NCBI GenBank assembly: GCA_963702845.1
Contig: OY969763.1
Span: 5,216,001-5,280,000, forward strand
DNA: 64,000 bases
Source of the DNA: an uncultured Verrucomicrobiae bacterium
GTDB lineage: Bacteria > Verrucomicrobiota > Verrucomicrobiia > Limisphaerales > Palsa-1400
Direction of reading: 5' to 3'
This document shows positions 10,983-35,297 of this stretch, piece after piece. The position numbers and the translations under genes are program-made. Under the pieces are notes generated by a model, which saw only the letters and a program-made list of their open reading frames with translations, did no database searches and was not told the origin of the DNA. Positions within the stretch are counted from its first letter, which is position 1, and each line of letters begins with the position of its first letter.

Positions 10983-11014
10983 ACGCCAGCGTTTTAGCGT
11001 ATGAAGGGATTACT

Positions 11015-11067
11015 CGTCAAAAACTGTAGGAAAAGGAGGGAAACCAGGGAAAGAAACAGCACTTTTT
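11015..11067 (-). promoter_or_regulatory. Shared phage-module promoter element, copy 1 (faces the helicase)
   Basis: Minus strand aaaaagtgctgtttctttccctggtttccctccttttcctacagtttTTGACG. Confidence 0.8.
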
Positions 11068-11570
11068 CCCGACAAAATGGGGTGGTTTTGTGCGGTTGGC
11101 ATGAATTTTGAGGGTGGGTTTTAGCCACAGATTGAACTGGCCGGTGGCGTGAATCACGACCTTGCGTGGGTGAACGCTATCAAGTCCTATCAGGTCATGC
11201 AGGTGGATTTGAGCTAACTCAAGAAGACAAGCGCCTGCAGGAACGGGTTGATGCCTTTCACAGCGCCGCAAATCCTCCCAAAGTTTCTCATTTTTGGTGT
11301 AGCGGTAATGAAAGCGATAGAGTTTCGGAACACCGAAGTTCGCTCTGACCGTCGACGAGATTTCGCTCCATGTCGAACAGGCCATACGACACAAGTGGTA
11401 AGTGTGAGATGCATGTGCGACTTACCCTGATTTTTCTTTACACCACTTTTCTCTATTCCTTCCGTAGCCGGACGTCGGCGTAACCAAAAAAGAAGCAATG
11501 ACCGGGACGTGTGTTCACGTGCCGCGCACCAGGCCTATGGAAGCGCACGCGCATGCCTTGTCGGAATGCC

Positions 11571-12704
11571 ATGAAAATAAATTTTTGCGTACTGGCCCTG
11601 CTCCTTTGCACCGTTGGCTGTAAAGGGAAGCACCGCGTTGCTACGCCGCCTCCGCCAATTGTGGAAGTCGCGCCCGTGACACAAGCCGACGTTCCGGTTT
11701 ATCACGATTGGATCGGCGTTATCGACGGGTTTGTGAATGCACGCATCCGAGCTCAAGTGCCGGGTTATTTGATTTCGCAGAATTATCGTGAAGGTGATCC
11801 AATCAAGAAAGGTGACGTTTTATTTGAAATAGACCGCAGGCCATTTCAAGCAACACTCGACCAAGCCAAGGGGCTTCTCGCGCAAGCCGAAGCAAAACTT
11901 GGCAAAACGGAACTCGACGTCAAACGCTATGCACCATTGCTCAAGGACAAGGCAATCAGCCGGGAGGAATACGATGACGCGGTCCAGGCCAATCTCGAAG
12001 CACAGGCAGCGGTCGCGTCAGCGAAAGCAGCAGTCGAGCAGGCGCAAGTGAATCTGGGGTTTACGCGCATCGAATCTCCAATCGATGGAATTGCGAGTAT
12101 TGCAAATGGACAAATCGGCGATTTGGTCGGGCCCAACACGACTGATTTGACGACGGTCTCAACAGTCGACCCAATCAAAGTCTATTACAACGTTACTGAG
12201 CAGGCTTATATCAATTTCACGAAGCTTTTCACCAGCGAGAGCAATAGATACGAGAGACTGCGAAAACTGGAAATCGAACTTCTTTTGGCCGATGGCTCTG
12301 TTTACCCGTTGAAGGGCAGAATCTATGCGGTTGATCGTCAAGTCAGCCCCACCACCGGAGCGCTTCGAATAGCCGCACTTTTCCCGAATCCTAATTACGC
12401 TTTGCGTCCCGGCCAATTCGGTCGTGTTCGGGTGAAATTCGAGCTTGCGAGCGGCGCACTACTGGTGCCGCAAAAGGCGGTCTCGGAATTGCAAGGCGCT
12501 TTCCAGGTGGCGGTATTGAATTCAAATAACACCGTGCACATCCAGCCGGTCCATCTTGGCGAACGCGTGGGCACACAGTGGATCGTGAAGGACGGAGTGC
12601 ATTTGGGCGATCGCGTCATTGTTGAAGGAACACAGAAAGTGCGTGAAGGCTCGGCCGTTACTGTGACAAACGCGCCGGCTCAGCTTAATTCCGCACCCCA
12701 TTGA
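11571..12704 (+). CDS. RND efflux periplasmic adaptor (MFP) lipoprotein
   Basis: Lipobox TVGC and the motifs IRAQVPGYL, IESPIDG, LRPGQFGRV and LLVPQKAV. Confidence 0.92.
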   Translation: MKINFCVLALLLCTVGCKGKHRVATPPPPIVEVAPVTQADVPVYHDWIGVIDGFVNARIRAQVPGYLISQNYREGDPIKKGDVLFEIDRRPFQATLDQAKGLLAQAEAKLGKTELDVKRYAPLLKDKAISREEYDDAVQANLEAQAAVASAKAAVEQAQVNLGFTRIESPIDGIASIANGQIGDLVGPNTTDLTTVSTVDPIKVYYNVTEQAYINFTKLFTSESNRYERLRKLEIELLLADGSVYPLKGRIYAVDRQVSPTTGALRIAALFPNPNYALRPGQFGRVRVKFELASGALLVPQKAVSELQGAFQVAVLNSNNTVHIQPVHLGERVGTQWIVKDGVHLGDRVIVEGTQKVREGSAVTVTNAPAQLNSAPH

Positions 12705-12709
12705 TCCGA

Positions 12710-15700
12710 ATGTCCAAATTCTTCATCAATCGACCAATCGTTGCCATCGTGATCTCAATCATCATGGTTGTCGTTGGGCTTGTTACTCTTTTCGGATTGC
12801 CAGTGGCGCAGTTCCCGAAGGTTGTTCCGCCGGAAATTTTTATCCAGGCAAACTACGTCGGCGCAGATGCGGAGACTATCGAGCAGTCGGTCGCGACACC
12901 CATCGAGCAGCAGATGAGCGGCGTCGACAACATGAATTACATGTATTCGATCAACGCGAACAACGGGTTGATGCGGATGTTCGTCAATTTTGACCTCAAG
13001 ACAGATCCGAACATTGACCACGTTCTACACAGCTGCGCTACGCCCAGGCCGAATCGCAATTGCCTGCAGACGTGCGCAATTTTGGTGTCACGGTCCAGAA
13101 GTCTCTTTCCGCGCCACTCATGCTGGTTGCGCTTAATTCTCCGAATCAAACACGCGACGCGCAGTTCCTGGCCAACTACGCGTATATCAATCTTTCCGAT
13201 CCTCTAAGCCGTCTGCCTGGCATCTCTCAAGTGCAAATATTCGGTGCGGGCCAATATGCGATGCGTATTTGGGTGAAGCCGGATCAGTTGTCGAAGTTAA
13301 ACATAACCGTTCCGGAAATCATCAGTGCAGTTGGAAGTCAGAACACGGTGAATCCCGCCGGCAAACTTGGTGGACGTCCGTCTCCACCAGGTCAGCAGTT
13401 TACGTATTCCGTGCGCGCGCAAGGCCGCCTCGTTACAGAGGAGGATTTCGGCAACATCGTGGTGCGAGCGACTGCTGACGGGGCAATTGTTCGGGTGAAG
13501 GACGTAGCGCGCATAGAACTTGGAGCCGCAGATTACGATATTTATGGTCGTTATAATAGGAAACCGAGCGCGGTTCTCGCGCTGTATCAATTACCAGGAT
13601 CAAATGCCATCGAGGCGGCCAAAGGCGTCGAGCGGCTGATGGCTGAATTGAAAGAACGATTCCCATCCGATCTCGATTATCAAATCTCGATTGATACGAC
13701 CCAGGAAGTCACAGAAGGCATTCGGGAAATCGGCGTAACTTTTTGGGAAGCGCTCGCACTCGTCATGGTGGTTGTTTTCATTTTTCTGCAAGGCTGGCGC
13801 GCGGCACTTATTCCTCTGGCGGCTGTTCCGGTGTCGTTGATAGGAACGTTTGCGGTTTTTCCGATATTGGGATTCTCGATCAATACCTTGTCTCTGTTCG
13901 GCCTGGTTCTCGCGATCGGATTGGTGGTTGACGACGCGATCGTTGTTGTTGAAGCCGTCGAGCATCACATCGAAGAGGGCATGTCGCCGAAGCAAGCCAC
14001 CTTGAAAGCAATGGAGGAAGTTTCAGGCCCTGTCGTTGCGATTGCTCTTATTCTCTCCGCCGTGTTCCTTCCAACGGTATTCATCCCCGGCATTACGGGG
14101 CGGTTGTATCAGCAGTTTGCGGTTACCACTGCTATATCGGTGCTGATTTCTGCGTTCAATGCATTGTCATTGAGTCCGGCTCTGGCGGCGTTGCTGTTGA
14201 AGCCCAAGCGTGAAAGCAAGGGGCCAATCGGCAAATTCTTCGACCTGTTTAATCGTGGGTATCGTAAGGTTACTGACGGCTACATTGGGCTTTGCCGTGT
14301 CCTCATTCACAAATCTGTCTTCGCTCTTCTGTTTCTCGGAATCATTGCAGCAGCCACGGGTTTGTTTGGCAAAAAGCTGCCTACAGGATTTCTGCCCGAA
14401 GAAGATCACGGATACTTGTATGTTAACGTGCAGCTTCCGTTCGCTGCTTCATTGGACCGCACAGTGGACGTTTGCAATCAGGTTGAAACAATAGTTCTCG
14501 CTATTCCCGGCGTAAAAAGTTGCACGACTGTGGCAGGGTTCAGTCTTTTAAGTTTTTCACGCAATACCTACAGCGCGTCATTGTGGATCGCATTGAAAGA
14601 CTGGAATGAACGAAAGACTGCGGCGGAAAGTTACGAATCTATCAAAGCCACCCTGACCAAAAAATTGTCTCAAGTTCCGGGCGCGATCGCGTTTGCGTTT
14701 CCACCTCCAGCCATTCAAGGCGTTGGCACAGCCGGCGGGTTCACATTTGTTTTGGAAGATCGGTCGGGCAAAGACATTCCGTTTCTTGCCGCTAACGTCT
14801 CAAAGTTCATGGAAGCGGCACGAAAGCGTCCGGAAATCGCGAGCATCACAACCACCTTTCTTCCTGTCGTGCCGCAACTTTACGTGGATGTTGACCGAGA
14901 CAAGACGCTGAAACAAGGCGTCGAACTGACCGAGGTCTATAAGACGCTGCAGACATTTATGGGCGGCTATTTCGTCGATTATTTCAATCGTTTCGGCCGC
15001 CAGTGGCAGGTCTACATCGAGGCCGAAGGTGACTATCGCACACGCGCTGAAAACCTGGGTTTATTTTACGTCCGCAATCACGCTGGTGAAGCTGTTCCTC
15101 TCGCGGCACTCACATCAACCAAGACCATCTCCGGACCAGAATTTACAATGCGCTACAATCTTTATCGAAGTGCACAGATTAATGGTTCCTCTGCGCCGGG
15201 CTACAGCTCCGCGCAGGCAACGAAGGCCCTCGAGGAAGTGTTCGCCCAGACGATGCCACCCGAAATGGGTTTTGATTACCTTGGCATATCGTTCCAGGAG
15301 CAAAAGGCCCAGCAAGGAGTCTCGCCCGTCGCGATCTTCGGTCTCTCATTTTTCTTCGTCTTTCTGATTCTGGCCGCACTTTATGAAAGTTGGAGTTTAC
15401 CGTTCAGCGTCCTGCTGGGCACGCCTATCGCTGTGTTCGGTGCGTTTGCGGCGCTGTGGATTCGTGGAATGGTGAACGACGTCTTTGCGCAGATCGGATT
15501 GGTAATGTTGATCGGCCTGGCTGCCAAGAACGCCATCCTCATCGTCGAATTCGCACGGCTGGAATACGAAAAAGGCCAGCCGCTGATCGATAGCGCACTT
15601 ACTGCGGCGCGAATTCGTTTGCGCCCCATTCTGATGACTTCTTTTGCCTTCATTCTCGGAACTGTTCCCCTTTCGATCGCAACCGGGGCTGGTGGAGTGT

Positions 15701-15888
15701 CGCGGCGTGTTATCGGCACAGTGGTAATCGGAGGCATGTTGGCCGCGACTTTAATCGCCGTCTGTTTGATTCCCGTGACGTTTTATGTAGTGGAAAAATT
15801 TTCGAGTCGTTTCAAACGCACGACCACAAGTGACTCGGAACGACCATCGGACGGAGGAGTAACACCTTCAGTGGGAACTAATGAATGA
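12710..15888 (+). CDS. RND efflux permease (AcrB/HAE1 family), frameshifted near 13027
   Basis: MSKFFINRP start, GLVVDDAIVVVE, AKNAILIVEF and RLRPILMTS. The reading continues DHVL then TQLRYAQAESQLP in another frame, so one base is missing. Confidence 0.9.
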
Positions 15889-17364
15889 TTGACACCAATG
15901 AGCGACGAGAGAAACAAATCGAAATCATCAACGGTCGAAACGTGGGCGATTCGTTGTTTATTGTCGGTTTATCACCCGCTGCCATGTGCCCCAATATTTG
16001 TAATTCTACTTATTCTCTTCGGATGCGCTGTGGGACCCAACTACAAACGTCCGGCAGTCCAGTTTCCGGGCATATTCCGAGGAGATACCAGCCGTACAAA
16101 TGCTTCTTTCGCTAATCTCGATTGGTGGCGTGTATATCAGGACACGAACCTTCAGGCACTCGTGTGTGAGGCATTCACCAACAACTACGATATACGCATC
16201 GCATGGACTCGCATCGAACAGTCGAGGGCGCTCGCGATGCAAGCGCGATCCCAGTTCGTTCCAAGTGTAAATTACAATGGAACCGTAAGTCGGGGGCGGA
16301 ATGTTGAGTTCGGTTCGGTTTTTCCTAACAACGGCAACACTGTAAGTTCCGCTGTTGCGACAATAAATTCCTTCTGGGAAGTGGATCTCTGGGGACGCGT
16401 GCGACGCCTGAATGAAGCCGCTCGCGCAAGATTTCTTGCTTCAGAAGATGCCCGACGGGGAGTGCAGATCATACTTCTCAGCGACGTTGCCGCTAATTAC
16501 TTTCAGCTTCTTGAACTCGACCGGGAACTGGAGATCGCCAACCGTTCGAAAAGCTCATTTGGCGAGAGCCTGCACATTTTTAATCAGCGCGTCGCGGCGG
16601 GCACTGTATCTGCGCTGGCATCATCGCGGGCAGAGGCGGCATTGGCCGATGCAGCGGCTGCCATTCCGACGATACTGCAGCAAATATCAAACACTGAAAA
16701 TGATTTATGCGTGCTTCTTGGACTCCCACCCGGTCCGATCAGGCGTAGCAATGTCACACTGGAAACGTTGCTACCGCCGAACATTCCGCCTGGATTGCCG
16801 TCCGCATTGCTGGAGCGGCGTCCAGATGTGCGAGAGGCGGAACAACAATTGCACGCGGCAAATGCGGAGGTTGGCGAAACTCTGGCCGAATTTTTTCCAA
16901 AGATCGGATTAACTGCGTTGATGGGCAGAGCGAGTCCGGGACTGTCGGCTTTCACCCTTGGCAGCGCTAACACCTGGGGTATTGCGGCCCAAGCGACCGG
17001 ACCTCTCTTTGAAGGTGGAAGGCTTCTCGGACAAAACAAACAGGCTCGAGCGTTTCGGGATGAAACAGCTCTTCGCTACCGGCAGACCATTCTCGGCGCA
17101 CTGCGCGATGTTTCCGATGCTTTGACATCACGAGAGCGATTTGCCGAAGTCCGCGATCAGCGGGCAATACAGGTGAAAGCGCTGCAAACAGCCGTCAAGC
17201 TGTCCTCCGAGCGTTATGTTGTTGGAAAGGCAAGCTATTACGAAGTTCTCGAAGCCCAGCAACAATTGTTTCCGTCAGAATTAAGCCTGGCACGCACCGA
17301 AAGAGATCAACTCCTGGCCGTGGTCGCGCTCTACAAGGCGCTGGGAGGAGGTTGGAAGGAATAG
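15889..17364 (+). CDS. RND outer-membrane factor (NodT/OprM family)
   Basis: GCAVGPNYKRP, WEVDLWGR, LLERRPDV and LYKALGGGW. The start position is uncertain. Confidence 0.92.
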   Translation: MTPMSDERNKSKSSTVETWAIRCLLSVYHPLPCAPIFVILLILFGCAVGPNYKRPAVQFPGIFRGDTSRTNASFANLDWWRVYQDTNLQALVCEAFTNNYDIRIAWTRIEQSRALAMQARSQFVPSVNYNGTVSRGRNVEFGSVFPNNGNTVSSAVATINSFWEVDLWGRVRRLNEAARARFLASEDARRGVQIILLSDVAANYFQLLELDRELEIANRSKSSFGESLHIFNQRVAAGTVSALASSRAEAALADAAAAIPTILQQISNTENDLCVLLGLPPGPIRRSNVTLETLLPPNIPPGLPSALLERRPDVREAEQQLHAANAEVGETLAEFFPKIGLTALMGRASPGLSAFTLGSANTWGIAAQATGPLFEGGRLLGQNKQARAFRDETALRYRQTILGALRDVSDALTSRERFAEVRDQRAIQVKALQTAVKLSSERYVVGKASYYEVLEAQQQLFPSELSLARTERDQLLAVVALYKALGGGWKE

Positions 17365-17456
17365 AATGCGATCTGAACCTAACCCGGCGTTAAAACGCCG
17401 GGTATGAGGATCGGAGTTGAATAAGTCCCTCCGGGACTGCTCGGCTCCTTGCCGAT

Positions 17457-18824
17457 TCACGCCGGCGGCGGACGCAACATCGTCTCCACTGGCACGCCTT
17501 CCGCCAACGTCTTCCCACTCACGTCCCCACCCAGCTTCAACAACTTCTCCCCGCTGGGCCGCACGCGCGTTTCGTAGCTACCCACGGCATCATTGTAGGC
17601 TTTCGAGGCTTGTTCCAACCCACTGCGAATCTTCTCGAAATGCTCGGTGAACTTCACGATGCGCAAAAAAAGTTCCTGCGCATTCTCTGAAATTTCACGC
17701 GCGTTCTCCGTCTGCGCATGTTGCTGCCAACTCATGCTCACGGCCCGCAGTAGCGCAATCAGCGAAGCCGGTGTCGCGAGCATGATTTGCTTTTTTGCCG
17801 CCCACACAATGAGGTCCCGATCCGCTTCGAGCGCTGCGCTGAACAACGATTCCGCCGGCAAAAATAAAACGACGTAATCGAGTGCGTTTTGGAATTGGCG
17901 CGGGTAATCGCGGTCGGCCAGCGCTTTGATCGTCGCCTTCAACTTGGCGGCATGCGCGGACAAGGCCTCGTTGCGTTTCAGTTCGTCGGCCGAATCCATC
18001 GCGCTGAGGAAATCCAGATCGGGCACCTTGGCATCGACAATGATGATGCGATTTCCCGGCAGGCGAATCGTCAGGTCTGGCTTCGAATCACCGGACTGAT
18101 CCTGCTCCGTGAAATCACAGTGCGCACTCATACCTGCGGCCTCGACAACATTGCGCAACGTCTCTTCACCCCAACGACCGCGCGCCTGATTTGAGCTGAG
18201 CACTTTGCGCAACTGCAACGTCTCGCTGGAAAGCGTCTGGCTGTTTTGCGCGAGGCTCTCGAGCTGTTTCTTTACCTCGCCGAGCGTCGAAGCCTGCGTG
18301 GTTTCGCTTTGTTGCAAGCGACGTTGATACGACTCGAGCTGTTCCTTCAACGGCTGCACCAACGAAGCAATGGCCTCCTGTCGTTTGCCCAAATCGCCTT
18401 TGGCCGACTCCTGGAATTTCGCCAACGTCTCATTAGCGAGCGCGAGAAACTGCGGCTGCGTTTGCTTCAAGGCATCGGCGCTCAACGCCTTGAACGCCTC
18501 ACGCAAGTCGACCAGCGCCTTGTCCTGCGCCAACTTGGCTTCGGCCAGAGTCTTGTCGTGCAGTATCTGCGCCTTTTCGAGAAGCAGTTGGGACGCGTCG
18601 CGCTCGGATTCCGCTTTCGCTACCGCCACGCAATATTGCGTCGCTTGCTGACGCGCCTGCGCCAACTCCCCTTCACGTTGGCTGAGCCGTTCCTTCAGAT
18701 CATCCTCGAACCGGCTATCGCCACCGTTCATCGGCGCCGACTTCCGGCCTTTGACAAAGCCGATCGCCCAACCGAGCACCGCGCCGATCACCACCCCAAT
18801 CGCAACATAAGCAATGCTCGGCAT
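17457..18824 (-). CDS. rmuC: DNA recombination protein RmuC
   Basis: N-terminal TM and coiled coil, RGRWGEETL, KPDL..LPG..IIVDAK, VLFLPAES and ATPASLIALLR. Confidence 0.93.
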   Translation of the reverse strand: MPSIAYVAIGVVIGAVLGWAIGFVKGRKSAPMNGGDSRFEDDLKERLSQREGELAQARQQATQYCVAVAKAESERDASQLLLEKAQILHDKTLAEAKLAQDKALVDLREAFKALSADALKQTQPQFLALANETLAKFQESAKGDLGKRQEAIASLVQPLKEQLESYQRRLQQSETTQASTLGEVKKQLESLAQNSQTLSSETLQLRKVLSSNQARGRWGEETLRNVVEAAGMSAHCDFTEQDQSGDSKPDLTIRLPGNRIIIVDAKVPDLDFLSAMDSADELKRNEALSAHAAKLKATIKALADRDYPRQFQNALDYVVLFLPAESLFSAALEADRDLIVWAAKKQIMLATPASLIALLRAVSMSWQQHAQTENAREISENAQELFLRIVKFTEHFEKIRSGLEQASKAYNDAVGSYETRVRPSGEKLLKLGGDVSGKTLAEGVPVETMLRPPPA

Positions 18825-18830
18825 CAGGGA

Positions 18831-19223
18831 TTAATAATGCGCCACGACTTCGATCTCAACAATCGCGGCTTTAGGCAAGGCGGCGACTTGAATCGTCGAA
18901 CGCGCCGGGAAATCGCCCGTGAAATACTTCGCGTAAACTTCGTTCATGCCCGCGAAATCGGCGAGGTTCGTTAGGAACACCGTGCTCTTCACCACGTTGG
19001 TGAAGGAGAGGCCCTGGTCTTCCAAAATAATCTTCACATTTTCCAGCACGCGTTCGGTCTGCACCTTGATATCGCCGCTGACCAGATTGCTCGTGGCCGG
19101 GTCGATCGGAATCTGTCCCGCGCAAAACAGCATGTCGCCGATGCGCACGCCATGATTATAAGGTCCAACCGCCGGAGCGCCCTTGGAAGGTTTGATAATG
19201 GTTTTTTTCATGTCTCCAGACAT
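18831..19223 (-). CDS. ridA: Rid family (RidA/YjgF) enamine deaminase
   Basis: AP.AVGPY, AGQIPIDP, MNEVYAKYF..FPARS and LPK..VEIEVVA. Confidence 0.9.
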   Translation of the reverse strand: MSGDMKKTIIKPSKGAPAVGPYNHGVRIGDMLFCAGQIPIDPATSNLVSGDIKVQTERVLENVKIILEDQGLSFTNVVKSTVFLTNLADFAGMNEVYAKYFTGDFPARSTIQVAALPKAAIVEIEVVAHY

Positions 19224-19306
19224 TCAAGCCGCGTTCTCAAACACGGTCAAGCATGGCCCGCTCCGAGCGACTTTGCGCATGGCACAACCGCTGCTTATAA
19301 ACAGGC

Positions 19307-22215: not shown

Positions 22216-22229
22216 CAGAGCCGGATGTA

Positions 22230-22379: not shown

Positions 22380-22475
22380 AACAATCCGTGTTTGCGAACC
22401 GGACGTTCCGGTCTGTGTTCCATCCGTCGCTAAAATTGGCCTCGATTTCCCACCGTTACCGTCCTACTCTCCGCT

Positions 22476-23623: not shown

Positions 23624-23782
23624 GTTTCCCTTTCGTTGTTAAACGGCCTGGACGACCGCACGATAATAGCCAACCGCCCGACGTTGTCAATCGCACCTAT
23701 GGCGTAATCGGGTGTCAGATAATTACCCACAAGCCACGTCAGGTTACGTGCCACACCATCAAAAACCGCACATTTTTGTGGA

Positions 23783-23835
23783 AAAAAGTGCTGTTTCTTT
23801 CCCTCCTCTCCCTCCTTTCCCTACATTTTTTGACG
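23783..23835 (+). promoter_or_regulatory. Shared phage-module promoter element, copy 2 (faces protease-capsid)
   Basis: aaaaagtgctgtttctttccctcctctccctcctttccctacattttTTGACG. Confidence 0.8.
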
Positions 23836-23998
23836 GTGTAGCAATTTAATACAAACTCCCCCACGTGCATGAAGCACCTGTCGCCCCCCGCCGTGAGGAG
23901 GCACTGAATGAAGAAAATTCGAAGCACGAAGCTCGAAATTCGAAACTTGGAAGAAGCCTCCTCACGACGGCGGCACAGAAACCGAAAGAACAAAAGAT

Positions 23999-24733
23999 AT
24001 GAACGAAATTTTAGAACGAGAATTTGGATCGCGCTTAATCAACCTGCGCAACGGCGCGCGCGGCCTGCGCGAAGGCCTCCACGTCCGCACCAGCATCCCC
24101 AAAGACGCCGGCAGCGAACCGGTCGTCGACTTCATCAGCTCCGATGAATCGCTCGATCGCTACAACGAAGTCATCAGCGCCTCCGGCTGGGTGCTCGATC
24201 CCTATTTGAAAAACCCGGTGTTCCAGGACTCGCACGATTACTCCACCATCCTGCGCACCATCGGCAAAGCCAGCGTCACCCAGGTGCGCGATGGAAAACT
24301 CTTTCAACGCATTCACTTCGCCGTCAACGCGAACCCGTTGGCCAAGATCGCCCACGCACTTTACAAAGGCGGTTTTCTCAACGCCGTCTCTGTCGGCTTC
24401 GTGCCCTTGAAATGGCAAAATGGCGATAGCGCCACCGGCTTTTCGCGCCGATACACCAAACAAGTTTTGCTCGAAACCAGCGCCGTCGCCATTCCCGCCA
24501 ATCCCAACGCCTTGCAACTGGCCTACGATTCCGGCGCGGTCGAGAAAAGCGACCTTCGTGAACTCCACCAGCTTCTGAGCGCCGTGGCTTCCGAAGCTCA
24601 TCACACGTCACTCGCCAATAATCACTTTCCGTCGGCAGCTCCACGTTCCAACACCAGCGCTTTGGGAACGTCCAGCGATGAAGCGCAGCAGTTAGTCAAC
24701 CTGATGAAACAAGCCGCGGCACTGTGCCGATAG
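23999..24733 (+). CDS. HK97-family phage prohead protease
   Basis: SDESLDRYNEVI, KNPVFQDSHDY, IGK, GFLNAVSVGF and LLETSAVAIPANPNA. Confidence 0.92.
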   Translation: MNEILEREFGSRLINLRNGARGLREGLHVRTSIPKDAGSEPVVDFISSDESLDRYNEVISASGWVLDPYLKNPVFQDSHDYSTILRTIGKASVTQVRDGKLFQRIHFAVNANPLAKIAHALYKGGFLNAVSVGFVPLKWQNGDSATGFSRRYTKQVLLETSAVAIPANPNALQLAYDSGAVEKSDLRELHQLLSAVASEAHHTSLANNHFPSAAPRSNTSALGTSSDEAQQLVNLMKQAAALCR

Positions 24734-24750
24734 GCCTGAACCATCAACCC

Positions 24751-24888
24751 GTAGCGCAGGTTTCCAAACCTGCTGTATCGCAGGCCTCCGAGCCTGCGGG
24801 GCGTAGGAACTTCGCAACGTTTGCGAACCACCGACGCGCTGCCGATTTGGAAATCGGCGATACAGCAGACTTGGAAGTCTGCGATACG
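24751..24888. repeat. REP-like palindromic repeat between protease and capsid genes
   Basis: gtagcgcaggtttccaaacctgctgtatcgc ... gccgatttggaaatcggcgatacagcagacttggaagtctgcgatac. Confidence 0.8.
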
Positions 24889-24926
24889 AAACAGAACCGA
24901 ACCAAAAACAAAGAAAGAAGAAAAAT

Positions 24927-26174
24927 ATGAACACAGAAATCACAACTCAGCCGCTTGAGGAAATGAAGTCCCTCCTGCAACAAATCCAATGGGCCAATCG
25001 CGAACTGGTTAAAGATTACCAGAGCGCGTCCACCGAAATCAAAACCCTCGGCGCTTCACACCAGAAGCTCTCGACCGATTTCGCCGAAGCCCAGAAACAC
25101 CTCGAACAACTCCGCCGCGGCACACTCGGCGCGACCAGTTCACGCCTCGCGCACCAGGCCGTCAGCGACGATTGCGCGCGTTACATCGCGGCAGCCGTCG
25201 TGTGCGGCGCGGACGCCATCGGTGGCCTCAACCACATCAAAGGCGCGCAACGCGACAGCCTTGTCGGCGAATGCAAAAACGTTCTCGGCCTCGAAACCCG
25301 CTCCGCATTGACCACGAGCGATATTCCGTTGCCGACGATGTATTCGCAGCAAGTCGTCGAACTCGTTTGGAAATACGGCCAGGCGCGCCAATTCGCCACC
25401 GTCTATCCACTCGGCCAGGGCACCACGAAGTTGCCGCAGTTGAAGACCAGCCCGAGCTTTGGCTTCATCTCCCAAAGCGCGAGCATCACGGAAAAATCGC
25501 CGCAGATTCAATTCGTGACCTTCAACCCGCAAAAAGCCGGCGGCCTCGTGCGCATCCCCTCCGAGATCGACGCCGACAGCATCGTCCCGCTCGGCCAATT
25601 CCTGGCGCGTTACATCGCCCGTGAAATGGCGCGCTGGGAAGACAGCGTGTTGTTCCTTGCCGACGGCACTGGCACTTACAACAGCCTCAAAGGCGTTGGC
25701 CAGACCGCCATCGACAACGCGTTCGCCTTGCAATTGGCCACGAGCAAAACCAAACCGACCGACATCACGGTGAACGACGTGCGCAACCTGCGCGCGAAAG
25801 TGAACTCGGCCGCGTTGTTCAGTGGCGCATACTACTTCCATCCCACGATGGAAGCGTTGCTGCGCTCCTTCAACAGCGGTGCCAACCCGCCGTTCGTCGT
25901 GAACGCGAATGGCCAGGCCACGTTCGAAGGCTTCCCCGTCCGCTGGGTCGGCGTGTTGCCCGTCTACGACGGCAACGCCCACGCGTCCCAGGTGCAGGGT
26001 GCTTTCGGTGACCTGAGCTACTGGTACTTCGGCGAACGTTCGTCCGTCTCGATGGACGTTTCCCGCGAAGTCTACTTCGCGACCGACGAACTGGCCGTGC
26101 GCGCCCTTGAGCGTTTCACCGTGCAGCTGATGGCCAACGACGCCGTCGCTGCGTTGCAATTAGCCGCGAGTTAA
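24927..26174 (+). CDS. HK97-family phage major capsid protein
   Basis: N-terminal coiled-coil delta domain, IPLPTMYSQQVVEL, PQKAGGLVRIPSEIDADS, GDLSYW and FATDELAVRALERF. It follows the prohead protease. Confidence 0.9.
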   Translation: MNTEITTQPLEEMKSLLQQIQWANRELVKDYQSASTEIKTLGASHQKLSTDFAEAQKHLEQLRRGTLGATSSRLAHQAVSDDCARYIAAAVVCGADAIGGLNHIKGAQRDSLVGECKNVLGLETRSALTTSDIPLPTMYSQQVVELVWKYGQARQFATVYPLGQGTTKLPQLKTSPSFGFISQSASITEKSPQIQFVTFNPQKAGGLVRIPSEIDADSIVPLGQFLARYIAREMARWEDSVLFLADGTGTYNSLKGVGQTAIDNAFALQLATSKTKPTDITVNDVRNLRAKVNSAALFSGAYYFHPTMEALLRSFNSGANPPFVVNANGQATFEGFPVRWVGVLPVYDGNAHASQVQGAFGDLSYWYFGERSSVSMDVSREVYFATDELAVRALERFTVQLMANDAVAALQLAAS

Positions 26175-27563: not shown

Positions 27564-27597
27564 GCGATTGCCCACGTGCCGAACGGCTTCTCAGTTG

Positions 27598-28533: not shown

Positions 28534-28592
28534 CGGGATCTGATCATGGCTACGTCATGGACCAAAACGTGCGCCACAAACCCTTCCCTTAC

Positions 28593-28943
28593 TTACTGAA
28601 CTTTAAGTTCGCTTCTTTGCCCGTCTTGCGTCGTCACCCATGCCTTGGAGAGATGCCATTCGGACAGCTTGCTGCCTTTGACGAAGTGATAGGTGTAACA
28701 GGACGGATCATCGCCTCTCATCACAAAAATATTCCGCGTGCAGGGATAAGTGATACGGTCGAACATCTGCGAGCCTTCCATGTGAATGTCACCACCTTCA
28801 CCAGGAGGCAACCCCGGCAGTTTACCGGCATCCTCCATCTCCACAAAAACCCGCGCTAAATCTTTTTGGACATTATTTGTGGCACATGAAACAAAGAGCC
28901 AACAGGTCGCTAATACGAATACGGTCTGAATTGTTCTACGCAT
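28593..28943 (-). CDS. Hypothetical lipoprotein
   Basis: Signal peptide ending FVSC. Confidence 0.6.
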   Translation of the reverse strand: MRRTIQTVFVLATCWLFVSCATNNVQKDLARVFVEMEDAGKLPGLPPGEGGDIHMEGSQMFDRITYPCTRNIFVMRGDDPSCYTYHFVKGSKLSEWHLSKAWVTTQDGQRSELKVQ

Positions 28944-29087
28944 AAGAAATCGTTTACCTCGTTTGGACTATCCAACCACCGAGCTTAACACTAGCGATAC
29001 CAACAAACAATCCCTCAGCTGGCTAAAACCTGCCTTTTAGCCACTCAAGAACCATGCCACCCGTCTGAAAACGCCACATTTCGTCAT

Positions 29088-29141
29088 AAAAAGGTGCTGT
29101 TTCTTTCCCTGGCTTCCCTCCTTTCCCTACATTTTTTGACG
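29088..29141 (+). promoter_or_regulatory. Shared phage-module promoter element, copy 3 (faces connector-portal-TerL)
   Basis: aaaaaggtgctgtttctttccctggcttccctcctttccctacattttTTGACG. Confidence 0.8.
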
Positions 29142-29258
29142 GAGTAGTCGCTTCTTGTCAGCATCGCAGCGTGACGGCAAAGAGCCGGCCTGGCGGCTGG
29201 GCTTTGAAAAACACGCCGATTGGCATCCGTCCGCAATTTGAAAACGAAAGAGCTACTT

Positions 29259-29837
29259 ATGCTGACTCAATTATCCACTGTAAAAACCCGCCTCAACGTC
29301 ACCGACACAAGCTTCGACGGCCCCCTGGCCAACGCCATCGCTGGTTTCAGCGAACGGTTTGAGCGCGAGTGCAATCGCAAATTCGCCCGCCAGGTCAATG
29401 CCATCGAAGAATTCTCCGCCGACCAAATCGAGATCTGTCCCGTCTCGTGGCCGATCGAATCGGTCGGGTCGTTCGATTTGAAAACGAAGGAAAGCGACGG
29501 ATGGCAACCGGTCACGCCGACGCCGGATTATTTGATTCGGAGCAATTGCGTGATTTCGCTGGAGACCGCCACCGGCTCGCGCTTCCAACAGGCGCGCGTC
29601 ACTTACACTGGCGGTTACGTGCTTCCGGGAACGACGCCGGGCACGGGGCAAACGCCGTTGCCGAGTGACCTCGAGCAGGCGTGCGTCGAACAAGTCGTTT
29701 ACTGGTATCAAAACCGCACGACCCTGGGCTTTCTCACTGCAACCGTCGGTCCCGGCACGCATCTCGTTCAAGGCGATTTGCTGCCGGGCGTCGCCGCTGT
29801 CCTCCAGAAATACACCCGCATCAGTTTTGACCAATAA
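29259..29837 (+). CDS. Phage head-tail connector / head completion protein (gp6-like)
   Basis: LTQLSTVKTRL...FERECNRKF...VTYTGGY...LPSDLEQACVEQV..WY...VAAVLQKY. Confidence 0.8.
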   Translation: MLTQLSTVKTRLNVTDTSFDGPLANAIAGFSERFERECNRKFARQVNAIEEFSADQIEICPVSWPIESVGSFDLKTKESDGWQPVTPTPDYLIRSNCVISLETATGSRFQQARVTYTGGYVLPGTTPGTGQTPLPSDLEQACVEQVVYWYQNRTTLGFLTATVGPGTHLVQGDLLPGVAAVLQKYTRISFDQ

Positions 29838-29845
29838 ACCAAATC

Positions 29846-29922
29846 GTAGCAGCCGAGGTTACGAGGCTCTGACGTCTGAGCGAATCGACGCGGAAGTTAG
29901 AGCCTCCTCACATCGGCGCTAC
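29846..29922. repeat. REP-like inverted repeat (related copy at about 23883-23975)
   Basis: gtagcagccgaggttacgaggctc ... gagcctcctcacatcggcgctac. Confidence 0.7.
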
Positions 29923-29948
29923 AACAACACAAAGAAAGAAAAAATATT

Positions 29949-31751
29949 ATGAAAATTGAAATTCCCTCACTCACAAAATGGTTGGGCAAAAAGTCCCAAA
30001 CGAAAAAGCGCACCGGCGGCTGGACCATCGAAGAATGGCGGCGCGGGGATGACCTCGATCATCCACAAACACGATTCGTCATGCCTTACGCTCAATCGGC
30101 GTGGGTTTACGTGGCGGTGAGCGTGCTCGCGGAAACCGTCGCGCACATTCCGTTTCGCTTTTCGCGCGGACGGCCCAAAGGCGAGGAACTGGTCGAAACC
30201 GGCCCACTGGTGGAACTGTTTCGTCAACCCGCCAGCGGCATCACCCGCACGTTATTTTGGCAAACGCTGGTTTCCTGGGAAGCGTTGCGCGGCGAGTTTT
30301 TCATCGTGCCGCTGGATACTGCTGGCCGCGTGTTGCGTCCGGGTCGCGGCATGTTGCCGAAGCAATTGATGACGCTCAACCCCGATCACATGCAAGAAAT
30401 CGTGCGCAAGAACGAATTGGTCGGCTGGCGTTGCACCGCGCCGGAAGGCTCGTCGCCGATGGGCGCGCTATTGCTCTTGCCGGAAGAGGTCATTCATTCG
30501 CGCAGTTTCAATCCGTATCTCTATTGGCGTGGCATGTCGCCGTTGTCGGTGGCGATGATGGCGGCGGAATCCGATTTCGCAGCGGCTCAGTTCATGAAGG
30601 CGGTGATGGAAAACAACGGTGAGTCCGGCTTGATTGTCACGAGCAGCACCGACCTGCGCGACGATCAAAAGGCGCAAATCCTCGCGCAACTGAGCGCTCG
30701 CCGACGCAACAACACCGCATTGAACAAACCGCTCTTGCTCAACGGCAATTTCACCGTGCAAAAGCCGATGTTGTCCAGCGCCGACATGCAGTTCCTGGAC
30801 AATCGCCGCATGAACCGCGAGGAGATCGGCGCGATCTACAAAGTGCCGGAATCGATGATGGGTTTTGGCGATGAAAAGAGCGGCTTGAGCGCAGGCACGG
30901 CCATGCAGCAGGACCGCTTGAACTTCATCGAGAACACGATCACCGGTTTGCGCCGCCGATTGGAATCGGCACTGGAACCGATCATCCAAAGTTTCGACCC
31001 CGAGTTGCACGGATGGTTCGACATCGAGTCGTTGCCCATCATGCAAACGGCGCGTCGCGATCGTTTGGTCAGTGCTGAGAAGGCGTTCGGGATGGGCGTT
31101 CCCTTCAACGAAATCAACGAATTGTTCGGTCTCGGTTTTCGGCCGATGCCGTGGGGCGGCAAAGGTTTCGTGAATACGAACCTCGTTGAACTCGGTGATC
31201 TCCCCGGAGTGCGGAGTGCGAGGCCGGCGTCCGGCTCCACGTCCGCAGCAAGGTCGTCTGCAACCAGCGCTCCCGGATTATTGAAGAACCCAGAACTCGC
31301 TGTGGGCCGCATGCTCCAACTCGTGGATCAAACAACTCCGAAGGAGTTGCAGCCTTCAGCCCAGGGTTGTCTCGCGCCAAGCGAGACTACCCTGGGTAAC
31401 AAACCCAAAATGTTCGACAACCCTGAAAGGGTTGCGGCAACGAAAGCCCAACAACCAAAGCTTCGCCGGTTCCTCTTCGAACAACGCAATCGGGCGTTGG
31501 CGCAACTGGAACAGGAATTCGGTTTCCTGCACGTGCGCTTTCAACACGGTGAAGAGATTGATCCATTGCTCAACATCGAACGCGAAAACGAATTCCTCTT
31601 CGAACGCCTCGGCCTGGCCGATGGACTTCTCGTCGAAGCAAACGAAAAGCGTTTGTGTGAACTCAACGACGTCGTCCGCAAAGGCCTTGAGGCCGATGAA
31701 GACTTCGCCGAAGTGGCCAACCGCGTGAAACGGATTTTCACCAACAACTAA
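29949..31751 (+). CDS. Phage portal protein (HK97-like) with C-terminal extension
   Basis: WVYVAVSVLAETVAHIPF, LRGEFF, EVIHSRSFNP...GMSPL, DMQFLDNRR..REEIGAIYKVP and PFNEI. Confidence 0.92.
   Translation: MKIEIPSLTKWLGKKSQTKKRTGGWTIEEWRRGDDLDHPQTRFVMPYAQSAWVYVAVSVLAETVAHIPFRFSRGRPKGEELVETGPLVELFRQPASGITRTLFWQTLVSWEALRGEFFIVPLDTAGRVLRPGRGMLPKQLMTLNPDHMQEIVRKNELVGWRCTAPEGSSPMGALLLLPEEVIHSRSFNPYLYWRGMSPLSVAMMAAESDFAAAQFMKAVMENNGESGLIVTSSTDLRDDQKAQILAQLSARRRNNTALNKPLLLNGNFTVQKPMLSSADMQFLDNRRMNREEIGAIYKVPESMMGFGDEKSGLSAGTAMQQDRLNFIENTITGLRRRLESALEPIIQSFDPELHGWFDIESLPIMQTARRDRLVSAEKAFGMGVPFNEINELFGLGFRPMPWGGKGFVNTNLVELGDLPGVRSARPASGSTSAARSSATSAPGLLKNPELAVGRMLQLVDQTTPKELQPSAQGCLAPSETTLGNKPKMFDNPERVAATKAQQPKLRRFLFEQRNRALAQLEQEFGFLHVRFQHGEEIDPLLNIERENEFLFERLGLADGLLVEANEKRLCELNDVVRKGLEADEDFAEVANRVKRIFTNN
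31333..31435. repeat. REP-like palindromic element inside the portal coding sequence
   Basis: Hairpins caactccgaaggagttg, cccagggttg..ctaccctggg and caaccctgaaagggttg. Confidence 0.7.
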
Positions 31752-31802
31752 CCACGAGGCACGAGACCACGCCTCGCAACAAAAGAAAGAACAAACGAAA
31801 GT

Positions 31803-33251
31803 ATGAACAATAAAAGAGAAACATTCATCGGGCGGGCCAAGATTGTGCCCGCGTGCAGCGATCATTTTTTGCTGCCGTATCAATACAAATGGGCCACCGA
31901 CTACGCGCGCTTAAAGCTCGCCGTCAAGGCACGCCAAATCGGCTGGACCTGGACGGAAGCGTATTCGCTCGTGCGCCGCAAAGCGCAGAACGGCGCAACC
32001 GGCGACGTCTGGATTTCCAGTCGCGACGAAACGCAGGCAAAGCTGGTTGTCGAAGATTGCCGGAATTTTGCCAACGTGCTGGACGTCGGCGCGCGTGCTT
32101 TTAGCGAACTCGTTTTTGACGCAGCTAATTCCAGCGCGTAGACGATCGAGTTCGCCAATAACACGCGCATTCACTCGATGTCATCGAATCCCGACGCGCT
32201 AGCCGGCAAACGCGGCGATCGCGTCCTGGACGAGTTCGCGCTCCACCCGGACCCGCGCAAATTGTATTCCATCGCCTATCCCGGCATCACGTGGGGTGGG
32301 AGCCTGGAAATCTTTTCGACGCATCGCGGCACGGACAATTATTTCAACGTGCTCATCAACGAGATTTTGCACGGCGGAAATCCGAAAGGGTTCAGTTTCC
32401 ACCGTACCACGTTGCAGGACGCGCTCGACCAGGGGTTCTTGCACAAACTGCAAATGAACTTGCCACCGGAGGATCCGCGCCAGCAAATGGACGAAGCCGA
32501 TTACTTCAACTTCATCCGCGCCGGTTGTCCCGACGAGGAGACGTTTCAACAGGAGTATATGTGCGTGCCCGGCGATGATGCCTCGGCGTTCTTGTCGTAT
32601 GACCTGATTGGGTCGTGTGAAGGGCCGGAGCCTGCGCCAATCACGGACAGCTCCGAACTTTACGTGGGAGTCGATATCGGACGTGAGCGCGACCTGACGG
32701 TGATTTGGGTCCTGGAAAAACTCGGGGACGTTTTTTACACGCAATTCGTGCATGTGATGAATTGCGAAACGTTCGATGCCCAGGAAAGCGCGCTCTATGC
32801 GTTGCTCGAAGATCGGCAGGTGAAACGCTGTTGCATCGACCAAACCGGCATCGGCCGCCAATTCGCCGAACGCGCGCAAAAGCGGTTTGGGAAATACCGG
32901 ATCGAAGGGATCAGCTTCACGAGCGCCGTGAAAGAGGAACTCGCGTATCCGGTGCGCTCGGCGTTCGAATCGCGGGCATTACGAATTCCCGTCGACCCGA
33001 AAATCCGCGCCGATTTGCGGGCGATCAAAAAGGAAATCACTGCGAGCGGCAACATCCGCTTCACCGCCGATCGCGGTGAAAACGGTCACTCGGACCGCTT
33101 CTGGGCCTTAACCCTGGCCTTGCACGCCGGCAGCCGCCCACCAAGCAGCGGGCCCATCGGCGCATGTGGCGTAAACAATGTCCTGAAGGGGCGATTGGCA
33201 TCATCAATCACCCCTTCAGGACATCCTCTTTACAAGAGCCGACTTCGGTAG
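31803..33251 (+). CDS. Terminase large subunit (Mu gp28-like), interrupted by an in-frame TAG at 32139-32141
   Basis: LLPYQ, KARQIGWT (Walker A), VLDEFA (Walker B), STHRG, GVDIGR, IDQTGIG and HSDRFWA. The two ORF halves are in the same frame (32178-31803=375). Confidence 0.9.
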
Positions 33252-33268
33252 CAATCTGACGAATATCT

Positions 33269-33652
33269 ATGAGTAACGTTCCGGGTGATTTGAAATTCGC
33301 CAAAAGCCACGAATGGGTCCGCTTGAATGGAGATATCGCGACGGTCGGTATCAGCGACCACGCGCAGCATGAATTGACCGACGTGGTGTTCGCCGAGGTG
33401 CCGCAGGTCGGGCGCAAAGTGAAGGCCGGCGAGGCGACGGCAGTGGTGGAATCGGTGAAGACGGCGAGCGATGTTTATTCGCCGGTCAGCGGAGAGATCG
33501 TGGAAGCGAACGCTGAGTTGACCTCAAATCCGGAACTGGTGAACAAGGAACCTTACGGTAAAGGTTGGTTTTTCAAGGTAAAGCTGTCGAACCCATCGGA
33601 ACTGAATTCGTTGATGGATGCGACAGCTTATACCAAGCAGATTTCAGGCTAA
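33269..33652 (+). CDS. gcvH: Glycine cleavage system H protein
   Basis: [17 protein letters not shown] (lipoyl Lys), SPVSG and PYGKGW. Confidence 0.97.
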
Positions 33653-34045
33653 TCACAGCCTTGCCATTGCGGCTTCGATCTGGCGCAAGGTTTCCGGGGT
33701 GAGGCCTTTCTTGGCTTCGGGTTTTTCCAAAGCTTCCTGGACCTTCTGCTTTTGCGCGGTGACGTTTTCTTTGTACATCGCCAACTCGAGTTCGACCTTG
33801 AGCCGTTTGGTTCGTTCGCTCGTTTGCTCGAGGATTGTGCGGGCAAGCTCGAGGTATTCTTTCTGATTCTGGATATTCGTCTTCAACTTGCTCAAATCGA
33901 ACGATTCGAGCAGGTCGTTGATTTGATGGGCGAGCAACGTTTCGTTTAACGCGTTGGCGTCGATTTTGTGTTTTGTTTCCAGCTCGCGCGCCCAGTCGAG
34001 GGCCGCGCGGCTGCGGTTTTGTTTTGTTTCAGTTTCGGTGTTCAT
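33653..34045 (-). CDS. Helical phage protein resembling Mu gp27/DUF3486 (candidate small terminase subunit)
   Basis: All-helical, with C-terminal KKGLTPETLRQIE. It is the last gene of the lysis-like operon, next to a Mu-type TerL. Confidence 0.5.
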   Translation of the reverse strand: MNTETETKQNRSRAALDWARELETKHKIDANALNETLLAHQINDLLESFDLSKLKTNIQNQKEYLELARTILEQTSERTKRLKVELELAMYKENVTAQKQKVQEALEKPEAKKGLTPETLRQIEAAMARL

Positions 34046-34052
34046 AGTGGTC

Positions 34053-34373
34053 CTATTCGTTTGAGATTTTGCCGCGGATATAGGCGACGTCTTCGGCCAC
34101 GCGATTTATTTTTTCGTATAAATCGGCGAGGCTGCGGGCGCGTTCGATGGTGAATTCGCGGAAGCGTTCGTCCATTTCGCCCCGCAACAGTTCGTGCCGA
34201 CGCTCGCAATCGGCGGAAAGCCGCTTGATGTCGTCGGTGATGATTTGGTTTTTGCCGAAGAGTTTTCGGCAACGTGCAGTAACTTCGAGGGCGAGATAGC
34301 TTACGGCTAGCGCGCCGGTGAGGCCCAGGAGCCAGTTGGCGGTGATGGGCCAAGGGATGTTTTCGGGTGTCAT
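34053..34373 (-). CDS. Small phage-type membrane protein (TM + coiled coil)
   Basis: NWLLGLTGALAVSYLAL then a coiled coil ending KINRVAEDVAYIRGKI. Start at 34373, after a REP. Confidence 0.6.
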   Translation of the reverse strand: MTPENIPWPITANWLLGLTGALAVSYLALEVTARCRKLFGKNQIITDDIKRLSADCERRHELLRGEMDERFREFTIERARSLADLYEKINRVAEDVAYIRGKISNE

Positions 34374-34452
34374 AATTAGTTTTCTAGTGTTCAGATTTTT
34401 CGGAGTGCGGGCGTCTCGCGCTGCGGACGTGGACGTCCGCACTCCGGAAGTT

Positions 34453-34690
34453 TCATTTTTGTAGTTCTTCAATCCGGTCGGCCACGGCTTTGCGATAGCG
34501 TTGGTATTTCGCCATTGGGCATAAACACGCCGTCGGCCGGCACGTGGAGGACCTGGTTTGATTTCACGAATGTTTCAGTTTGGTCGGCGCTGATCACCAC
34601 TACTCGTGGCGCGTTGCAGGCGGTCGAGCTCATCCAGATCGCTGTTGCTGTGCAGAGCAGCAGCGTTGGAATTTTGCGTGGCGATGTCGC
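34453..34690 (-). CDS. Putative o-spanin-like lipoprotein (one extra base near 34511)
   Basis: RKIPTLLLCTATAIWMSSTA-C (Cys at 34618-34616) NAPRVVVISAD..., continuing KYQRYRKAVADRIEELQK* in the adjacent frame. Not in the ORF track. Confidence 0.45.
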
Positions 34691-34818
34691 GGTCGATTTT
34701 GTTCATAACGGTTTTTGTTTTGTATTCGTGGATCGTTGGTTTGCGCGTCGCGCCGTTTCAGGAACCAAAAAATGATTCCCAAAACGAGCGACACGAGGCT
34801 GATGATCGCGGTTGTCAT
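34575..34818 (-). CDS. Putative i-spanin-like protein (one extra A near 34697-34700)
   Basis: N-terminal TM MTTAIISLVSLVLGIIFWFLKRR. The helical tail IDRDIATQN...DLDELDRLQRA continues in the adjacent frame and overlaps the lipoprotein signal. Confidence 0.45.
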
Positions 34819-35132
34819 TCCTTTGGTTCGGGTTTGATGCCGAGGGTCGGCAGTTTGATTGAGCCAATGAAATCAAGGCCGAAGCTCAACCACTTATAGA
34901 CCGGGCCGGTTTCGAAGTGTTGCAGGCGACCGTATTCCTCGGGCGAGCAGTTGGCTTTGATGTAGCTATCGAGCAGCGCCATGACGGGCTTGAAGAGGAC
35001 ACGCAGCGCGCCGATGACGAGCAGCGAAGTCGCAAGCCAGGGATAGTGCTGGGCGAGGTTGATGAAGAAGCCGGCGATGCCTGAGTCGGCGAGCGACGCG
35101 GGGTCGGCGGTGATTTGGGCCAGTAGTTTCAT
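34815..35132 (-). CDS. Holin-like small membrane protein
   Basis: 105 aa with hydrophobic segment PWLATSLLVIGALRVLFKPV and a charged C-terminus. It is the first gene after motif copy 4. Confidence 0.5.
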   Translation of the reverse strand: MKLLAQITADPASLADSGIAGFFINLAQHYPWLATSLLVIGALRVLFKPVMALLDSYIKANCSPEEYGRLQHFETGPVYKWLSFGLDFIGSIKLPTLGIKPEPKE

Positions 35133-35245
35133 ATGTTTTGATCTCCGAAAGACGGCGGCCGTTTTGGCTGGACTGAATCCGACATCCGGTTTTCGTGGGC
35201 CGGAGGTTGCCGTCACGAAATGGTTTTACCGTGTAACCGCTACTT

Positions 35246-35297
35246 GTGCAAAAACTGTAGGGAAAGGAGGGAAACCAGGGAAAGAAACAGCACTTTT
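35246..35297 (-). promoter_or_regulatory. Shared phage-module promoter element, copy 4 (faces the lysis-like operon)
   Basis: Minus strand aaaagtgctgtttctttccctggtttccctcctttccctacagtttTTGCAC. Confidence 0.8.

Follow-up and report, generated by a model that had tools for sequence, protein, structure and literature searches.

We analyzed a 64,000-nt stretch of DNA (the window) from an uncultured soil bacterium of the Verrucomicrobiae. The stretch spans positions 5216001-5280000 of the one 6.03-Mb contig (G+C content, 54%) that makes up genome G000. Four copies of one promoter-like repeat lie in the window, near genes for a primase/helicase-like protein and for phage-like head proteins (Table 1). 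These repeats belong to a 33-copy, genus-restricted family of ~110-bp cassettes that lie before unrelated genes, and each cassette is likely a reusable sigma-70-type promoter for the gene downstream. Genes are longest-open reading frame (ORF) calls, made with no trained predictor.

Table 1. Cassette copies, the genes behind them, and a nearby pair of candidate regulator genes, in window coordinates
Feature	Positions	Strand	Details
Divergent gene pair	7307..8245		HTH_3 protein, 7307-7720(-); 137-aa protein, 7832-8245(+)
DnaB-N + AAA_25 primase/helicase-like protein behind copy 1	9498..10982	-	Patchy among relatives
Cassette copy 1 (e24)	10984..11122	-	U2-type upstream flank; A-tract + GTGCTG; 3 x 9-mer; TTGACG; 18-nt spacer; TAAAAC; predicted start ~10984; helicase ATG at 10982
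Cassette copy 2 (e25)	23728..23865	+	TTTCCCT/TCTCCCT/TTTCCCT; TTGACG; poor -10 box CAAACT; predicted start ~23865
Genes behind copy 2	23999..26174	+	Prohead protease, 23999-24733; HK97-type major capsid protein, 24927-26174
Cassette copy 3 (e26)	29034..29171	+	TTGACG; 17-nt spacer; CAGCAT; predicted start ~29171; leader opens with CGTGACGGCAA, then a hairpin
Genes behind copy 3	29220..33251	+	Head-tail adaptor, 29220-29837; 95-aa ORF; portal, 29949-31751; 112-aa ORF; large terminase, 357 aa
ORFs behind copy 4	33653..35216	-	133, 139, and 130 aa; no family match
Cassette copy 4 (e27)	35216..35353	-	TTGCAC; 17-nt spacer; TAAAAC; predicted start ~35216

Searching with a 38-nt degenerate pattern and a tolerance of 3 mismatches places the copies at 11025-11062(-), 23788-23825(+), 29094-29131(+), and 35256-35293(-), where an earlier note written from the sequence had put them. 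The window has these four matches and no others; 100 dinucleotide shuffles gave a mean of 0.00 matches and a maximum of 0. Alignment of the copies bears out the consensus proposed in that note: three TTTCCCT heptamers at 9-bp spacing, followed by ACA[G/T]TTT and the hexamer TTGACG, which is TTGCAC in copy 4. Deviating heptamers are the middle ones of copies 2 (TCTCCCT) and 3 (CTTCCCT) and the third of copy 1 (TTTTCCT). Its other landmarks were also found: the G of a CGT lies 30 nt past the hexamer in copies 2 to 4 and 31 nt past it in copy 1 (counted by hand on the alignment), and the -10 boxes of all four copies are weak. The unit itself had been drawn too short, at ~55 bp; homology extends ~100 bp upstream of the -35 box, which makes the unit ~110 to 125 bp long.

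The four window copies are part of a dispersed family that lies before unrelated genes. An nhmmer profile built from the copies finds 33 of them in the genome at E <= 3e-9, with the next match at E = 0.3, and a 41-nt pattern has 28 genome matches compared to 0 for the reversed control. All of the cassettes are intergenic. A same-strand ORF of at least 130 aa starts within 550 nt in 32 of the 33 copies; the exception, e04, is followed by short ORFs only. The gene upstream runs in the same direction in 17 copies and diverges in the other 16, which leaves the forward direction as the only one that consistently aims at a gene.

Comparison of the ORFs behind every copy with Pfam and PHROGs showed non-phage families behind 23 of the 33 copies. 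Most copies of the family thus stand before housekeeping and metabolic genes. Examples include aconitase, ATP synthase beta and epsilon, a class-1 release factor, an acetyl-CoA synthetase-like enzyme, ParB, ThiG, a sulfite/nitrite reductase, UDP-glucose dehydrogenase, a sodium:solute symporter, and DUF1800/DUF1501 proteins. Phage families were found behind six copies (window copies 1 to 3 and the small/large terminase pairs at e08, e12, and e19), and only unknowns behind three. The remaining copy, window copy 4, precedes small ORFs that lack a family and whose only link to the head genes is that both occur in the same genomes. The earlier note had described the repeat as always oriented toward a phage module: this is true of copies 1 to 3, which have phage genes downstream; the ORFs behind copy 4 match no Pfam or PHROG family. 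Likewise, its observation that no copy precedes a non-phage gene holds inside the window but not genome-wide. With 23 of 33 copies before non-phage families, the phage regulon that it proposed fails; many copies at non-phage genes is the outcome that the note itself had named as counting against the idea. The note also expected additional matches to mark missing tail and lysin loci, but no recognizable tail or lysin gene lies behind any of the 33 copies, and the sole extra phage matches of the genome-wide profile scan are the three small/large terminase pairs.

Several features argue that the cassette is a promoter. In all 33 copies, a -35 box (TTGAC[G/A/C/T], TTTAC, or TTGCAC) stands in fixed register from the repeats, and a -10-like hexamer follows 16 to 18 nt further on; this register is kept across 18 unrelated downstream leader groups. 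Of the 33 copies, 23 have, at the fixed position, a -35/-10 pair that satisfies a sigma-70 consensus rule: 4/6 or more matches in each hexamer and 9/12 or more in total, A2 and T6, and a spacer of 16 to 18 nt. TG lies directly upstream of the -10 box in 22 copies, and most host-gene copies have TGn plus CATAAT, CACAAT, or CATCAT as their -10 element. The TAAAAC box found in e08, e24, and e27 is also present in e07, which has non-phage genes downstream. Counted by eye, a C-G step lies 29 to 31 nt past the -35 box in the window copies, groups A and B, and e03. We strongly infer from these features that the cassette acts as a promoter. The fixed -35/spacer/-10 register in 33 copies thus supports what the earlier note had proposed for four: that these are promoters with a set orientation, weak -10 boxes, and a start site predicted at the same point in each. 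Its start positions are reasonable predictions (Table 1). Start codons lie only 8 nt (helicase) and 6 nt (e08 small terminase) after the -10 box, which puts both ATGs at the predicted start, the layout of a leaderless message; the copy 1 helicase mRNA is likely leaderless.

In the mechanism that we favor, RNA polymerase would start transcription ~30 nt past the -35 box. The conserved upstream half of the cassette, an A-tract with a TGC core and two to four pyrimidine-rich 9-mers that run up to the T-run and the -35 box, would strengthen or regulate the promoter through a candidate binding factor or through DNA structure. That this half works through a bound factor is a tentative proposal, to which we give slightly less than even weight; alternatively, the pyrimidine tract could have a structural role, or the array could simply be homogenized by conversion. 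Since the phage-gene copies have the weakest -10 boxes, they may depend most on the upstream module. Copies would spread and homogenize by recombination or gene conversion between one another, not by transposition, and the phage-like head genes of the window would merely be some of the genes wired to the cassette.

How widely is the cassette distributed? The exact core is absent from 40 relatives, and the exact 27-nt core has 0 matches in one genome each of 185,579 species, a set from which the window's own genome is possibly excluded. A looser three-heptad pattern has a single match, on an unrelated Treponema contig. The exact core is present at 18 loci of one metagenome, whose flanking genes are 80 to 89% identical to G000 at the nucleotide level and which therefore represents a sister species, known solely from these 18 contig pieces. 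With a 131-nt copy as the BLAST query, both same-genus assemblies proved to contain diverged copies: G002 has at least 12 and G001 at least 2. A pattern that describes the architecture (A-tract, TGC core, 20 to 50 nt, CTACA[G/T]TTTT) matches 18 times in G000, 10 times in G002, and once in G001. Both same-genus assemblies are fragmented, and because they are only 67% and 73% complete, their counts are lower bounds. The cassette architecture is confined to one genus: it occurs in 3 of 3 genomes there and in none of the 28 genomes that represent nine other genera of the family.

Within this architecture, the 9-mer array is species specific. Of 101 units in G000, 77 are exactly TTTCCCT and 13 are CTTCCCT, with three units in 27 copies, four in 4, and two in 2. 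Units in the sister species are also TTTCCCT, except that the second is TGTCCCT in 5 of 19 copies. G002 has TGTCTTT, TCTACTT, TCTCTCT, or TGTCTCT, usually four per copy, and G001 has GTCTCT or GTGTCT. All species retain the A-tract and TGC core, GG/CC as spacers, and the ACAG-T-run. Among the window copies, copy 2 corresponds to L044 of the sister species, and copies 3 and 4 correspond to L075 and L069 of G002. The two G002 loci share flanks and leaders with copies 3 (78.5% over 121 nt) and 4 (88% over 77 nt); nonetheless, both bear the G002-type array. Because orthologous loci bear each species' own array, the array has evolved in concert across loci within species.

Of the 528 copy pairs, 291 are 80% or more identical over 50 nt or more. 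Copies have also been gained or lost between sister species. Among the 18 sister-species loci, 7 lie at sites that have a G000 copy, including the capsid (L044) and helicase (L049) loci, and at least 8 precede genes whose G000 orthologs have no cassette and other upstream DNA. At L049, L051, L054, L056, L058, and L059, the two cassette flanks map far apart in G000, and the leader family of the thiG copy differs between G000 and the sister species. Leader family 1 in G000 (9 copies, with ~290 nt and the start codon in common) is joined to 7 U1 and 2 U2 upstream flanks. The e18/e32 leader type has 2 copies in G000 compared to 9 of the 19 sister-species copies (L042, L043, the second of L047, L050, L055, L057, L058, L059, and, less closely, the first of L047), an approximate count made by eye. 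This suggests that different leader families expanded in each species, in lineage-specific bursts, although several of the between-species leader groupings rest on visual reading, with BLAST backing for 4 of 14 loci. We read the mosaic pattern as the probable outcome of recombination through the shared core, by which cassettes would be copied and exchanged.

The leaders have features of their own. Family 1 leaders (L001, L003, L005, L006, L007, L011, L012, L017, and L018) consist mostly of CCA-headed units with a 10-nt period and end in a common ATG plus ~12 shared codons before unrelated genes. The e18/e32 leader has two hairpins (one with GCAATAACGC in the loop region), a GAAAGG ribosome site, and the shared start ATGCGAGACAATGTC. 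Other short motifs (CTTTGCGCCTTTGCGTTGA, TCTGTGCCTCTGTGGT, and CATCCGTGGCTAAAA) recur in intergenic DNA of G000 and of other genera of the family; they are found in the upstream flanks of many copies (for example, window positions 11090-11150 and 35330-35380) and of G007 genes (L089, 11900-12100).

Some observations weigh against a spreading, general-purpose sigma-70 promoter. A generic sigma-70 scan misses all four window copies, and 10 of the 33 copies, all four window ones included, fail the consensus rule. Terminal inverted repeats do not exceed those of shuffled sequences (best 12-mer, 8.30 compared to 8.10, for 33 copies); copy 2 alone has a 17-nt, 88% inverted pair, which is a one-off. 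Comparison with the sister species gave no clean filled/empty site, since homology ends at gene borders, and at the only collinear site the insertion spans 2.2 kb and includes other DNA. The four 9-mers of G002 differ from one another, which weakens a simple model of three identical binding sites. Finally, phage packaging and head genes are over-represented behind cassettes: cassette-headed operons contain the genome's only Phage_capsid gene, one of its two portals, and three of its six Terminase_6C genes, so there may be a special link with phage-derived genes.

That link was central to the earlier proposal, in which these are activator-dependent promoters of a phage regulon switched on by an Xis-like protein, the 137-aa product of the gene at 7832. 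A weaker form of the idea would be that only the phage-gene copies with poor -10 boxes need the activator. Copies before phage-like genes do have the weakest -10 boxes (e08 and the four window copies), and the remark in the earlier note about weak -10 boxes and activator dependence is compatible with the window copies. A capsid gene at >=52% identity is present in five other genomes of the family (G001, G002, G007, G003, and G006), and three of them encode a homolog of the 7832 protein: G002 (58% identity), G007 (35%), and G003 (45%). The protein may therefore belong to a phage-derived set. Its best Foldseek matches, all of them non-significant, are phage Xis (E = 0.13; template modeling [TM] score, 0.73 on the target) and the winged helices of RacA, BldC, and MerR-type proteins. 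However, its HTH_17 match in Pfam is below the cutoff (18.2 versus 27 bits), its AlphaFold model, built with four sequences, has a predicted local distance difference test (pLDDT) score of 62, and Foldseek found no match at E <= 0.001. G007 and G003 hold both a homolog and head genes but no cassette, so nothing ties the protein to the cassette, and no cassette copy lies beside its gene. What had been presented as the natural candidate is thus a weak one. The divergently encoded HTH_3 protein (7307) is present in 27 of 30 family genomes, which is uninformative, and we found no link from the pair to the cassette. Given also the predominance of non-phage families and the lack of tail or lysin genes behind the 33 copies, a phage regulon is improbable, even in the weaker form.

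The mosaic loci raise a different possibility: that the cassette is chiefly a recombination site at module-exchange junctions, with the 9-mers as arm-type sites for a recombinase or an Xis-like factor and promoter activity secondary. The distant G000 locations of the flanks at the six loci named above and the mosaic combination of upstream flank types and leader families are as expected from such a site, but ~110 bp of near-identity would suffice for the same mosaic by ordinary homologous recombination. Such a site would not account for an orientation toward the gene that is fixed in 32 of 33 copies, nor for a -35/-10 register that is kept where the downstream sequence is unrelated, and no recombinase was found beside the copies among 92 scanned ORFs, a search that was not exhaustive. 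We regard this as very improbable. A divergent sigma-54 promoter (GGCA[C/T]-N5-TTG[C/A] on the opposite strand of the upstream flank, with the 9-mers as its enhancer) was rejected and seems hardly credible. The other strand of the flank does read GGCACAAAGATTGC (U1) or GGCATGGAAGTTGA (U2), with the correct -24/-12 spacing, and the genome encodes sigma-54 and enhancer-binding proteins (for example, at window positions 3356-4945); however, GGCAC-N5-TTGC is not enriched in the genome (73 matches versus 62 in the reversed control), and U2, which makes up half the flanks, has TTGA and lacks the conserved GC. Such a promoter would also read antisense into the co-directional neighbor in 17 of 33 copies, and in copy 4 the motif overlaps the neighbor's start codon. 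A family of sigma-70-type promoter cassettes remains the reading that we prefer.

The two candidate regulator genes are kept together in G002 (L093), where their products have diverged very unequally (86% versus 58% identity). Directly downstream of the 7832 gene, a match to the Rfam Acido-Lenti-1 RNA (37.7 bits; gathering score, 37) lies at 8353-8398(-). Elsewhere in this part of the window, an AcrB-type pump gene at 12701-15888(+) is split into two overlapping ORFs of 168 aa (profile positions 1-101) and 942 aa (118-1020); the split points to a frameshift near 13060-13207, if not to an error in sequencing.

The phage-like head genes behind the window cassettes have a history of their own. 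The capsid gene is single copy, and its product is 90% identical in G002, 89% in G001, 75% in G007, and 77% in G003, which together represent three genera, and 52% identical in G006. The portal has the same distribution as the capsid and the 139-aa ORF, the latter encoding a protein behind copy 4 that co-occurs with the capsid gene in G002, G007, and G003. In the ESM Atlas, two ORFs behind copy 4 gave only scores of 0.85 to 0.89 to unnamed, mostly viral clusters, which serve as leads only. As in the window, the G007 capsid gene comes after genes for a hybrid histidine kinase and a protease; next come a 110-aa ORF, the adaptor, and a non-phage gene. By eye, no ancestral version of the cassette is visible upstream of the G007 head genes (L089). 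Dispersed, intact, vertically kept head genes occur with and without the cassette, and they are older than it. The earlier note's suggestion of selection after dispersal is reasonable, although the support comes from a single-copy capsid gene that is 75 to 90% identical across three genera and not, as argued there, from the promoters.

The head-gene set (protease, capsid, adaptor, portal, short terminase, and small ORFs) lacks tail genes and is dispersed among cellular genes, as at L089 (G007) and L084 (G002); it looks domesticated and is possibly a gene-transfer agent-like or capsid-forming island. The copy 3 large terminase (31803-33251) has 357 aa, compared to 486 to 505 aa in its paralogs, and keeps mainly the nuclease domain; the family-less 112-aa ORF just upstream of it could be a remnant of the ATPase part.

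Among known systems, the putative mobile promoters (PMPs) of Nijveen, Matus-Garcia, and van Passel (2012) are the closest. These were defined by at least 80% identity over at least 50 nt, with adjacent coding sequences that are not paralogous and an element that lies within -150 to -50 of the start codon; most PMP families are pairs, and the mechanism by which PMPs spread is unknown (PMC3575422). Correia elements of Neisseria are cited there as promoter-carrying repeats (reference 2 of PMC3575422). Like PMPs, the cassette is a near-identical noncoding sequence upstream of unrelated genes in one genome, and the 291 copy pairs noted above satisfy the identity rule. Its downstream proteins belong to many unrelated Pfam families; the exceptions to non-paralogy are the three terminase pairs and several leader subfamilies that share first codons. 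Between the -35 box and the first long ORF lie ~27 to ~550 nt, so that some copies lie nearer than -50 and others farther away, behind long leaders. Unlike PMPs, the family is large (33 copies), its 9-bp array of two to four units is species specific and has changed in concert at orthologous loci, and several subfamilies carry a common leader as well as the first codons. On sequence criteria, the cassette is best filed as a new PMP family.

Correia elements are transposon-like, with terminal inverted repeats and a TA target duplication. The cassette resembles them as a dispersed intergenic repeat of ~100 to 150 bp that can supply a promoter to its neighbors and is found in one genus, but it has no inverted termini above those of shuffled sequences and has one fixed orientation toward the gene. 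A miniature inverted-repeat transposable element (MITE) or Correia-like transposable repeat was rejected on the same comparison of termini. T4-type PeSL cassettes have a stable stem-loop just upstream of the promoter. No significant stem-loop was found in the four window upstream flanks (DNA-fold z-scores of 0.11, -1.69, 1.00, and -1.37), and a PeSL-type cassette was rejected for lack of this defining feature. Intergenic repeats of the halovirus HF2 are reported to carry promoters (PMC8707807). As with PeSL cassettes and HF2 repeats, the same promoter-bearing repeat lies before several separate gene modules, at module boundaries; those elements, however, are inside a virus genome, whereas the cassette mostly precedes cellular gene families.

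Direct-repeat operators that are bound cooperatively include the omega repressor heptads of pSM19035, the met-boxes of MetJ, and the sites of BldC/Xis-type binding. The cassette shares with these two to four short head-to-tail repeats directly upstream of or overlapping a promoter, but differs in its 9-bp period, its alternating GG/CC spacers, and the non-identical units of G002. The cassette is no known insertion sequence or Rfam family, and an Rfam scan of all loci and the window placed no family on any cassette or leader. Literature searches on TTTCCCT promoters and direct repeats and on intergenic repeats of Verrucomicrobia turned up no account of it.

The tempting reading of a private phage regulon thus gives way to promoter reuse, in which one cassette would feed ~33 unrelated operons. 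The family can be compared with unusually good resolution: three or four species have orthologous copies, arrays are specific to each species, leaders have been swapped, and copies have been gained and lost. It is therefore well suited to studying how promoters disperse and remain uniform within a genome, a question left open in the 2012 PMP paper. The work also draws attention to a Verrucomicrobiota family in which a phage capsid gene set persists as a single copy and is strongly conserved. A bolder reading, which we consider rather unlikely, is that the array is the operator of a fast-evolving, genus-specific global regulator, whose dialect (TTTCCCT, TGTCCCT, TGTCTCT, or GTCTCT) would have been rewritten in concert at >30 promoters between sister species, and that the cassette captured both core metabolism and the vertically inherited, dispersed, tail-less head-gene set. 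If this were true, the host would run a domesticated capsid or gene-transfer agent-like system in Verrucomicrobiota through a spreading promoter.

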